This document shows, piece by piece, positions 57,204 through 58,563 of a stretch of DNA of 64,000 bases; positions within the stretch are counted from its first letter, which is position 1, and the number at the start of each line of letters is the position of its first letter. Source of the DNA: an uncultured bacterium (GTDB taxonomy: Bacteria; Patescibacteriota; Minisyncoccia; Phycocordibacterales; UBA918); NCBI GenBank assembly GCA_965652925.1, contig CBFGXL010000001.1:23821-87820 (forward strand), given 5' to 3'. A model generated the notes under the pieces. The model was given only the letters and a program-made list of their open reading frames with translations, did not search any database and had not been told where the DNA came from. Position numbers and translations under genes: made by a program.

Positions 57204-58025
57204 CTAGTTGACAAAGATGATGTACGCGTCATCCAGATCGATCTCATCATCAATCCAATTATATGCTCCTTGAGTGTAGTAAGAGGTCTGGGTGTAGTAG
57301 GAAGTCTGAGTGTAGTAGGAAGTCTGTGCGTAGTAATTTCCTTGGATGTAGTATGAGGTCTGAGCATAGTAGGAAGTCTGAGTGTAGTAAGAACCCTGAG
57401 AATAATAACCACTCTGGCTGTAGTAGCCACTCTGGCTGTAGTAGCCTGACTGAGAATAATAACCACTTTGTCCGTAATATCCGCTCTGTCCGTAATATCC
57501 GCTCTGTCCGTAATATCCGCTCTGTCCGTAATAGGCACCTTGTTCATAGTAACCGCTTTGGCCATATGCAGCCCGTGCTGTGGGTACGAACCAGTTATCA
57601 TTAAAGTTTACCTCTCCTCCTCCACACACTTCTGAGTAATTTCCATTGTCTTCAGTCTCCATATTCTGAACAATGATTACATCTCGAGTTTCTCCATTGC
57701 ATTCAAAATCAGAGAAATACCAATATCCATATTCACTTTTATCTCCCAGCGGATCCTTGTTTATTTCAGGCAAAAACGGTGCAAGCTCAGCATCAATTGC
57801 TTCACCAACACCTATTTCAACGCCATCGCTAAACTCAGGATATTCACCATTCGCCTCCTTGTAGAGTCGTACACCGAGTTTAAGTTGTTCAATATCATTT
57901 ACACGTGCTGAATCTCGCGCTTCTTTTCGCGCATTTAGCACAACAGTGAAAGCAAGAACCGCGAGCGTGACAATGATACCCACTACTGTCATCACTTCAA
58001 TAAGTGTGAAGCCTGTTCTTTTCAT
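57204..58025 (-). CDS. Type IV pilin-like (prepilin N-terminal cleavage/methylation domain) protein with a C-terminal Tyr/Gly/Ser/Gln-rich tandem-repeat tail
   Basis: MKRTG|FTLIEVMTVVGIIVTLAVLAF class-III leader. A globular head paralogous to the neighbouring pilin. Then about 17 hexapeptide repeats: GQSGYY x5, SQSGYY x4, TQTSYY-type x6. The first ATG is at 58025. Confidence 0.7.
   Translation of the reverse strand: MKRTGFTLIEVMTVVGIIVTLAVLAFTVVLNARKEARDSARVNDIEQLKLGVRLYKEANGEYPEFSDGVEIGVGEAIDAELAPFLPEINKDPLGDKSEYGYWYFSDFECNGETRDVIIVQNMETEDNGNYSEVCGGGEVNFNDNWFVPTARAAYGQSGYYEQGAYYGQSGYYGQSGYYGQSGYYGQSGYYSQSGYYSQSGYYSQSGYYSQGSYYTQTSYYAQTSYYIQGNYYAQTSYYTQTSYYTQTSYYTQGAYNWIDDEIDLDDAYIIFVN
57263..57570. 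repeat. 18-nt (hexapeptide) tandem repeat array, about 17 units, inside the pilin-like gene
   Basis: Near-identical units such as gtccgtaatatccgctct x4 and tagtagccactctggctg x2, encoding GYYGQS/GYYSQS/SYYTQT on the minus strand. Confidence 0.8.
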
Positions 58026-58074
58026 TAACACAATAATATCATTATGCAGCAATAAAAAAGTATGGGCGGGGGGA

Positions 58075-58563
58075 TTATTCTTTGAGTACGATAATGTACG
58101 ATCCGGTGCCTGCTACGGCAGTATCAGGAGTCCCGTGTGTGCAGATATCTGTAAAGTTAGCATTTTTTGAAAGTTCCATATTCCGAACAAATATCACATG
58201 CTGACCAGTCTCAGAGCAGGTAAAGTTTGAATCATACCAATAACTATAGGTATCATCCCCAGCGGTTCTCATCGGATCAGTGTACGTATTCCCGTTGAAT
58301 AAAATCATATCGTCATCAAGCTCACCTCCCATGCCAATTTCAACACCTCCATCAACTGACGGGTATTCTCTATTTTTCTCCTTATATAACGTGAGTGCGA
58401 ATTGAATATTTGAAAGGTCGGCAACACGTTTCTGTTCACGGGTGTTCTGACGCGCTTGAGAGATTGAAGCGAAAATAATACTGAGTATAAGTACGATGAG
58501 CGTAATAACAACCGCGAGCTCAACCAAAGTAAATCCACCTTTTGCTTGAGAAATTTTCTGCAT
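58075..58563 (-). CDS. Type IV pilin-like / pseudopilin protein (prepilin-type N-terminus)
   Basis: MQKISQAKGG|FTLVELAVVITLIVLIL. The head domain is paralogous to the 57204..58025 product (EYPxxDGGVEIGxG, YxYWYxSxFxC...HVIFVRNME). Confidence 0.7.
   Translation of the reverse strand: MQKISQAKGGFTLVELAVVITLIVLILSIIFASISQARQNTREQKRVADLSNIQFALTLYKEKNREYPSVDGGVEIGMGGELDDDMILFNGNTYTDPMRTAGDDTYSYWYDSNFTCSETGQHVIFVRNMELSKNANFTDICTHGTPDTAVAGTGSYIIVLKE

Follow-up and report, generated by a model that had tools for sequence, protein, structure and literature searches.

A tyrosine-rich hexapeptide repeat inserted in the head of a type IV pilin-like protein from an uncultured bacterium: a possible adhesive or self-associating loop

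Type IV pili are the main surface-contact tool of many bacteria, including, for cultivated Patescibacteria, contact with their hosts. It is not settled how filaments of such simplicity acquire new binding properties; the solution known so far is the grafting of folded domains onto pilins. Here this question is raised by a locus in a 64-kb stretch of DNA from an uncultured bacterium (64,000 nucleotides, hereafter the window), where two adjacent minus-strand genes, pilA1 and pilA2, encode type IV pilin-like proteins, the second of which carries 17 tandem hexapeptides of the form xQxxYY. The locus points to another solution, in which a tyrosine-dense repeat, predicted to be disordered, has grown within the pilin head. 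The pilin identity of PilA1 and PilA2 is well supported. The joint interpretation that they are two paralogous type IV pilin subunits and that the PilA2 loop serves as a multivalent, FUS/EWS-like tyrosine sticker module for adhesion or self-association is the one we favor, with a confidence that stands about midway between doubt and certainty, the function being proposed by analogy.

A sequence-only reading of this DNA had described a prepilin signal at the start of both genes, and this was confirmed by inspection of the sequence, by pattern search and by profile models. Class III signal peptides were defined by a short basic leader whose last residue is Gly, by Glu at position +5 of the mature protein and by about 20 hydrophobic residues thereafter. 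These features were found in both proteins, PilA1 starting with MQKISQAKG followed by GFTLVELAVVITLIVLILSIIF (first mature residues GFTLVELAV) and PilA2 with MKRTG followed by FTLIEVMTVVGIIVTLAVLAF (FTLIEVMTVV). After its nine-residue leader and the GFTLVE motif, PilA1 continues with the alpha1 helix, a beta-sheet head and the last strand SYIIVLKE. The mechanically delimited open reading frame of pilA2 (57204..58052, stop codon at 57204-57206) opens at a TTG at 58052; the ATG at 58025 is the likely start, and the resulting 273-residue protein is also called by gene callers on six metagenome contigs. Both proteins exceeded the curated cut-off of the TIGR02532 model (19.6 for PilA2 and 18.6 for PilA1, against 16.3), and no prepilin motif beyond these two was detected by the pattern search in all six frames of the 64 kb. 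The globular heads are paralogous, as had been suggested earlier, with 38% identity over 138 residues (E = 9e-33).

The structure of PilA2 was predicted with AlphaFold2 from an alignment of 21 family sequences, few of which bear repeats, so that the alignment is shallow in the repeat region. The head was folded confidently as a pilin, with a predicted local distance difference test (pLDDT) score above 90 at residues ~10-140, and showed the lollipop arrangement of a long N-terminal alpha-helix (52 residues) packed on an antiparallel beta-sheet. The best Foldseek matches of the model were C. difficile PilA1, GspG and PilE. Residues 142-258 returned pLDDT values below 50 (32-44 in the repeat in all five models), with flanks above 83. 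The repeat had earlier been described as a C-terminal tail, a placement that was overturned by both the alignment and the model, in which it precedes the conserved last beta-strand AYIIFVN. This strand is aligned to the last strand of the short family members (YVVLIN, FIVFVH, and SYIIVLKE in PilA1), in which the second invariant cysteine (Cys134) leads straight into the last strand. Since the short members pass directly from this cysteine to the strand, the PilA2 repeat is an insertion in the head and not a tail. The two invariant cysteines of the head, Cys109 and Cys134, presumably form a disulfide; a DsbA-like thioredoxin-fold protein encoded at 32465..33247 (+) of the window could form it.

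The insert nearly always opens after a hydrophobic stretch and the motif [ILV]-P-x-A-x-A (PilA2, the family members P0001-P0006 and P0145, and the related loci L090 and L093), as in FVPTARA/A, LIPTAYA/G and VIPTRAEA/G, which resemble the end of a Sec signal peptide. The pilin insert closes with Y-[PNG]-W followed by an acidic stretch. In non-pilin proteins bearing the repeat, the units begin immediately after such a Sec-like site. From its sequence, the boundary could reflect the capture of a module from genes for secreted proteins, a cleavage site or merely a strand.

The repeat, for which about 17 hexapeptides had been counted earlier, consists of exactly 17 xQxxYY units, and Tandem Repeats Finder returned arrays of 18-bp period at 57271-57557. 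The units are ordered as GQSGYY, EQGAYY, four GQSGYY, three SQSGYY and SQGSYY in the first half, and as TQTSYY, AQTSYY, IQGNYY, AQTSYY, two TQTSYY and TQGAYN in the second. Gln and the first Tyr (Y5) occur in 17 of the 17 units and the second Tyr (Y6) in 16, with mixed synonymous codons for Gln and both Tyr. Among the 102 repeat residues are 33 Tyr (32%), 18 Ser, 17 Gly, 17 Gln and 9 Thr, whereas Glu and Ile occur once each and Pro is absent; Tyr, Ser, Gly, Gln or Asn account for 85% of the residues. Predicted disorder (pLDDT <50), richness in Tyr, Gln, Ser and Gly, and few charged or aliphatic residues are the features of FET-type, prion-like low-complexity domains. The likeness to FUS drawn in the sequence-only reading thus fits in composition and predicted disorder, as a resemblance without homology. 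The possibility of an assembly artefact was also checked: six ENA contigs from separate assemblies agree at 100% identity over positions 57100-58800, so the repeat is real and not a one-off product of assembly. Two other open reading frames, 57170..57601 (-) and 57263..57604 (+), arise only because the repeat is also open in other frames.

Related uncultivated loci were reached by walking from members of the NusB cluster. Taking L090, L093, L099 and L087 in this order, identity to the window is 98, 93, 91 and 89% for NusB, 94, 85, 85 and 86% for Rnc, 88, 80, 76 and 80% for SMC, 72, 62, 59 and 56% for PilA1, and 89, 59, 57 and 49% for the PilA2 head, the PilA2 proteins being 285, 301, 160 and 159 residues long. 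In L089, where NusB and Rnc lie off the contig and PilA1 is cut by the contig end, the values are 76% for SMC and 57% for the head of a 232-residue PilA2. The pilins evolve much faster than their neighbor genes. The number of units also differs between relatives, a comparison that had been proposed earlier: PilA2 orthologues have none in L087 and L099, ~7 in P0002/L089, ~13 in P0001, 17 in the window, 19 in L090 and ~21 in L093, P0001 lying on a contig of only 2 kb. Compared with L090, the closest orthologue, synonymous sites are saturated (synonymous divergence, dS, >2), and the colinear repeat units show a nonsynonymous divergence (dN) of 0.10 and a dN/dS of ~0.05, the values for the head and NusB being 0.013 and 0.008. 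As dN/dS is low despite saturated dS, the xQxxYY peptide is under purifying selection while its copy number drifts.

Table 1. Features of the pilA1-pilA2 locus and its neighbors (window coordinates).
Feature	Position	Strand	Description and basis
pilA1	58075..58563	-	compact type IV pilin-like protein, 162 aa; open reading frame list
PilA1 class III signal peptide and alpha1-N segment	58471..58563	-	N_methyl, TIGR02532, pattern search
pilA2	57204..58025	-	type IV pilin-like protein with repeat insertion, 273 aa from ATG 58025
PilA2 class III signal peptide and hydrophobic alpha1-N	57948..58025	-	MKRTG then F, Glu +5; sequence, pattern search, N_methyl/TIGR02532 at residues 2-26
Segment between invariant Cys109 and Cys134 of PilA2	57624..57701	-	both Cys kept in 21/21 family sequences
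Inserted loop, aa 142-258 (117 residues)	57252..57602	-	predicted disordered; AlphaFold2; between head and its last strand
Boundary motif FVPTARA, PilA2 aa 146-152	57570..57590	-	near loop start; sequence
xQxxYY repeat, PilA2 aa 155-256	57258..57563	-	17 tandem hexapeptides, 18-bp period; Tandem Repeats Finder, in-frame unit table
Last beta-strand AYIIFVN	57207..57227	-	rejoins pilin head; alignment; strand 268-271, pLDDT 83-89
rnc (RNase III)	58747..59466	-	upstream neighbor; Pfam; synteny in L087, L090, L093, L099
Short smc-like gene	54913..57180	-	downstream neighbor, 755 aa from ATG 57180; Pfam SMC_N residues 9-747
NusB-NUDIX fusion protein	59510..60415	-	301 aa; 31 members in 90%-identity cluster; always upstream of rnc in relatives

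On this basis we propose a model in which filament assembly, surface exposure of the loop and adhesive function are all steps that we infer. A prepilin peptidase would cut PilA1 and PilA2 at the G/F junction, and their hydrophobic alpha1 helices would form the packed core of a type IV filament, with the heads outward. In known type 4 filaments alpha1 lies in the core and the heads outside (PMC10628169), so the PilA2 loop would project from the filament surface. The stretch before the last strand of PilA2 has expanded into a 102-residue disordered loop of 17 xQxxYY units, by which each subunit would show 33 tyrosine stickers with Gly, Ser, Thr and Gln spacers. The most likely role of such a loop is multivalent, low-specificity adhesion: homotypic YY-YY association could support pilus bundling, cell-cell contact and the docking of other YY-bearing secreted proteins, and alternatively or additionally the loop could bind host or cell-wall polymers, with the repeat number tuning reach and avidity. 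If the loop is indeed self-associating or adhesive, the sticker-and-spacer logic of eukaryotic low-complexity domains would reach the bacterial surface, and uncultivated bacteria would have supplied an adhesion module that is small and open to testing. The earlier interpretation of an adhesive pilin is thus retained as regards pilin identity, tandem paralogues and tyrosine repeat, and abandoned as regards the tail and a local insertion of the gene pair.

Several observations weigh against this interpretation. The profile check proposed earlier was positive with TIGR02532 for both proteins, but the Pfam model N_methyl (PF07963) gave 18.6 and 19.7 bits for the window pilins, slightly under its gathering score of 21.2; the model clears this score in nine family relatives (25-33 bits). 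Neither the 64-kb window nor ~14 kb of additional flanking sequence yielded a PilB, PilC, PilD, PilM or PilT, so that processing and assembly are assumed; this search covered ~78 kb in total, by Pfam on 30 large open reading frames (1-42 kb), the annotated genes of matching contigs (48-64 kb) and the ~14-kb flanks. PilA2 may be a major, minor or tip pilin alike. In several relatives, YY segments occupy the position of a Pro/Thr linker beside inserted domains, and the repeat is perhaps mainly a spacer. The AlphaFold2 alignment is shallow and poorly aligned in the repeat region, which is compatible with ordered beta structure. Finally, the likely origin of the locus in Patescibacteria, as judged from sequence, is drawn from weak best matches: a scan of 185,579 species representatives with the generic pattern FTLIE[LV][LM]VV gave, among the matches listed, full-head matches in metagenome-assembled genomes of Paceibacterota, Kaiserbacteria and Patescibacteria at 28-30% identity, and the matches listed were distant pilins lacking synteny and YY repeats.

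The search for tyrosine-repeat pilins in metagenomes that had been proposed earlier was successful, as homologues with YY inserts were recovered within a narrow family, for which a profile search against 1.84 billion representatives gave 108 proteins at E <= 1e-30. Thirty-five of the 161 family sequences examined are at least 200 residues long. Extra sequence lies at the PilA2 insertion site in 28 of these 35 and after the last strand in seven more; the remaining long members have tandem pilin units or a longer N-terminus, and some combine several features. Four kinds of insert were distinguished: YY repeats without any other module (P0001, P0002, P0074, P0076 and P0107), one to five Ig-like domains (five in P0145, of 614 residues), Cys/Asp-rich modules, and combinations. 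About 13 of the 35 long members bear YY segments, frequently on one side only of an inserted domain, and in P0004 a Pro/Thr linker replaces the YY segment on the C-terminal side. At the corresponding site, the PilA1 orthologue of L089 carries an Ig-like insert. None of the family inserts has a Pfam signature, though N_methyl passes its gathering score in relatives. The stretch between the Cys-bounded region and the last strand is therefore an insertion hot spot of the family, accepting YY repeats, Ig-like domains and Cys-rich modules, which is useful for annotation and for pilus engineering.

The YY motif also occurs outside this pilin family. Arrays of xQxxYY lie directly behind a signal peptide in P0022-P0025, P0037, P0039, P0041, P0044 and P0045, and at the extreme C-terminus of the FN3 proteins P0028 and P0033 and of the GspH-like pilins P0021 and P0026. 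The locus L096:1-10337 (JGI 3300049015, Ga0498747_000020) comes from the same sample as L093 and is consistent with the lineage in GC content and tetranucleotide usage; this compositional similarity suggests that the non-pilin YY proteins belong to the same lineage as PilA2. The xQxxYY repeat thus appears, from its distribution, to be a secretome module specific to this lineage, rather than something peculiar to pilins. A search with the repeat only gave 11 matches at E <= 10 among 1285 candidates and is not a census, since the composition correction of HMMER penalizes such a query. The exact 273-residue PilA2 is also missing from a collection of 15 billion proteins despite gene calls on at least six contigs, so repeat-rich proteins are perhaps under-represented there and the counts of YY proteins are lower bounds.

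Some of these proteins deserve mention on their own account. The L096 cluster encodes a giant protein of more than 3721 residues and four proteins, secreted or membrane-bound, for which Pfam gave no match. Two of them, P0023 (183 aa) and a 585-residue secreted protein, bear YY segments, located at the start of the mature protein and between Ig-like domains; the Ig-like domains of the L096 proteins resemble those inserted in the pilin relatives. P0020 (398 aa, on a 14.7-kb JGI contig) has ~35 YY units directly followed by a Hint/PT-HINT-like autoprocessing domain (21.6 bits, below the cut-off), which hints that a YY-rich fragment might be released or ligated. The small YY-repeat proteins P0022, P0036 and P0041 share an unannotated C-terminal domain, …FEYEPNGYC.RV.V.K….PRT.I.SDGF.V.C…RALQRSVEL[TS]Y.

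A bolder form of the sticker interpretation would regard xQxxYY as a lineage-specific extracellular velcro code, by which a YY-coated pilus zips to other pili or cells and recruits YY-tagged secreted proteins. Its partners would be the Ig-domain proteins, the Hint-domain protein and minor pilins, held by homotypic tyrosine contacts like those of FUS or of low-complexity aromatic-rich kinked segments (LARKS). Bacteria would then possess an extracellular equivalent, templated on a filament, of the low-complexity assemblies of eukaryotes, with which an ultrasmall epibiont might build its attachment interface, a picture that we consider rather speculative and unlikely in this full form.

The main rival to a sticker function sees in the repeat a flexible spacer or entropic bristle, a lineage-specific type of linker that normally ties inserted domains to the pilin head and has here expanded without cargo into a passive brush on the filament, possibly shielding from phages and proteases or keeping pili apart. 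We hold this to be unlikely. In its favor, YY segments flank Ig-like inserts on either side, a Pro/Thr linker takes their place in P0004, YY separates the Ig-like domains of the 585-residue secreted protein, the repeat is predicted to be disordered, and its unit number varies freely between relatives. However, a spacer should constrain composition and not motif, yet Gln (17/17) and the Tyr pair (second Tyr 16/17) are kept at a dN/dS of ~0.05. Moreover, YY arrays at the extreme C-terminus or at the mature N-terminus (P0021, P0026, P0028, P0033 and P0037) link nothing, and a Tyr content of 32% is atypical for inert linkers.

PilA1 and PilA2 might instead be pseudopilins of a short Com-like competence or secretion pseudopilus, or pilin-like membrane anchors for the loop. 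The GspG, GspH and ComG models align to the N-terminal part of both pilins only and score far under their cut-offs. The GspG major pseudopilin model (TIGR01710, an equivalog of 134 positions) gave 35.0 and 39.4 bits against 88.85, over the N-terminal 66-92 residues only, and the competence major pilin ComGC (NF040999) 14.7 and 21.1 bits against 75, so that both assignments were rejected. In fold searches the major pilins of monoderm type IV pili, C. difficile PilA1 and S. sanguinis PilE1, were similar in score, and a surface loop of 100 residues, like the Ig-domain inserts of relatives of up to 614 residues, fits an exposed filament better. We therefore judge a pseudopilus improbable; it would alter the type of filament and leave the role of the loop unchanged.

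About equally improbable is an ordered beta structure missed by AlphaFold2, such as a long beta-hairpin, a solenoid or a cross-beta (LARKS- or amyloid-like) zipper between subunits, which would make the loop a rigid projection or a reinforcement of the filament. The strict six-residue period with invariant Tyr, Tyr and Gln and no proline would suit it, as would the two halves of the array, of G/S-type and then T-type units, which could pair; the 21-sequence alignment, with few repeat-bearing members, also leaves room for it. Against this stand the pLDDT of 32-44 throughout the five models and unit numbers of 7-21, which imply no fixed fold size. YY arms are one-sided in P0003, P0067 and P0068, so that pairing of arms is no general requirement, and a hairpin stalk of paired arms around inserted domains is disfavored. 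The Pfam scan returned no signature above cut-off for the insert, neither a hexapeptide beta-helix nor any other repeat. The left-handed beta-helix hexapeptide (PF00132) was rejected, with no Pfam match at E <= 0.1 and no aliphatic residue at a fixed position. A collagen-like triple helix (PF01391) was likewise rejected at 15.9 bits against 27.2: Gly occupies each third residue only at residues 167-190 (the four GQSGYY units), interrupted by SQSGYY and TQTSYY, and this spacing is absent from the repeat of the L093 orthologue.

A scaffold for modification, by dense O-glycosylation of Ser and Thr or by oxidative Tyr-Tyr cross-linking that hardens a matrix, appears very improbable. Each unit offers one to three Ser/Thr and two Tyr, and both the O-glycosylation of pilins and the dityrosine cross-linking of Tyr-rich structural proteins are established; however, no gene for a glycosyltransferase, an oligosaccharyltransferase or a peroxidase/tyrosinase is adjacent, and nothing sequence-specific points to either chemistry. 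Finally, a functionless product of neutral slippage or of assembly is effectively refuted: identical 18-bp blocks (three identical copies of GGACAGAGCGGATATTAC) speak for recent slippage, but the six independent assemblies are identical and the motif is kept in orthologues at saturated synonymous divergence and conserved in unrelated proteins too.

The favored interpretation of PilA2 as a pilin with a tyrosine sticker loop can be compared with known systems. Modular type IV pilins, such as S. sanguinis PilB with its vWA module and PilC with its lectin module, combine a small N-terminal pilin module with an extra module presented by the filament, adhesion being a common theme; many such architectures occur in candidate phyla, where modules lacking a database signature are under-counted (Raynaud et al. 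2021, PMC8179133). PilA2 is built in the same way, with a pilin head and a 117-residue insert that is absent from the short members, and the YY motif is also found in non-pilin secreted proteins. In the modular pilins of Raynaud et al., however, the module is a folded C-terminal domain joined by a short linker and probably located at the tip, whereas the PilA2 insert is a disordered repeat inside the head and is followed by a head strand. Insertion within a pilin beta-sheet has a precedent in the GspK-type pseudopilin (PMC8179133), a minor pseudopilin located at the tip in the diderm type II secretion system, although there the inserted part is a folded alpha-domain; no sequence relationship to PilA2 was found. 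GspG/PulG/EpsG, C. difficile PilA1, S. sanguinis PilE1 and Thermus PilA4 have no repeat insertion, unlike PilA2. The PilA heads share 13-21% identity with solved structures and, among the matches listed, 28-30% with pilins of Paceibacterota, Kaiserbacteria and Patescibacteria metagenome-assembled genomes.

By composition and period, we regard the EWS activation domain as the nearest analogue, a resemblance and not a homology. In this domain, degenerate SYGQQS repeats form a disordered region that owes its activity to the aromaticity of many tyrosines (PMC3784488). Like FET domains, PilA2 has a disordered repeat rich in Tyr, Gln, Ser and Gly, and its six-residue unit equals that of EWS in length. 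FET domains are eukaryotic, nuclear and free-ended, whereas the PilA2 repeat is bacterial, would be extracellular, and forms a closed loop on a filament subunit with two adjacent Tyr per unit; the polyvalent interactions of FET domains depend on aromaticity, and Tyr-dependent association of the PilA2 loop is here proposed by analogy. We take the Tyr density of the PilA2 repeat to be several times that of FUS. No tyrosine-rich or low-complexity pilin inserts, nor these motifs, were found in the literature searched, within its limits. A disordered Tyr-rich repeat inside a pilin head is a new kind of module within the established modular-pilin strategy. Type IV pilus genes are widespread in Patescibacteria/Saccharibacteria and implicated in motility and host association (PMC11665869, PMC11623550).

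As regards the neighborhood, the sequence-only reading placed the pair between rnc and smc and took it for a local insertion. The flanking genes are as described, but the genes form a co-directional block whose order, nusB-NUDIX, rnc, pilA1, pilA2 and short smc, was found in each relative with a readable neighborhood; since pilA1-pilA2 is conserved between rnc and smc, the pair is not a recent insertion. The short smc directly follows pilA2 in L087, L089, L090, L093 and L099, its start lying 23 nt past the pilA2 stop in the window, with spacers of 3-38 nt across relatives. Its length (755-765 aa) is kept in all relatives, and no SMC hinge domain was reported by Pfam at E <= 0.1. The scanned open reading frames of the window (Pfam, 30 large frames) are housekeeping, carbohydrate and stress genes.

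The spacer between rnc and pilA1 (58564..58746) is merely 20-66 nt long in relatives. In the window it contains two 25-nt palindromes with perfect stems, at 58650-58674 and 58727-58751, of sequence GGTGATGTACTyAATGTACATCACC, both followed by GACCTTTTGA and absent from the rest of the window. The 133-nt palindromic region, taken as RNA, folds with -61.9 kcal/mol (z = -7.7); Rfam gave no match on 56900-59600. The pair may have arisen by duplication of an rnc terminator or represent a small element that was inserted here. Two further duplications were observed at the edges of the window. A block of ~6.2 kb upstream of position 1, encoding a 232-residue Cys-rich protein, a 336-residue protein, KGG, ClpP, SDR and a histidine kinase, occurs twice in tandem in ENA ERZ27245830 NODE_21 (L100/L101), either through segmental duplication or as a repeat introduced by assembly. 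A similar doubling affects 800 bp of dnaE (window 63201-64000) in L002, where the product reaches 1655 residues.

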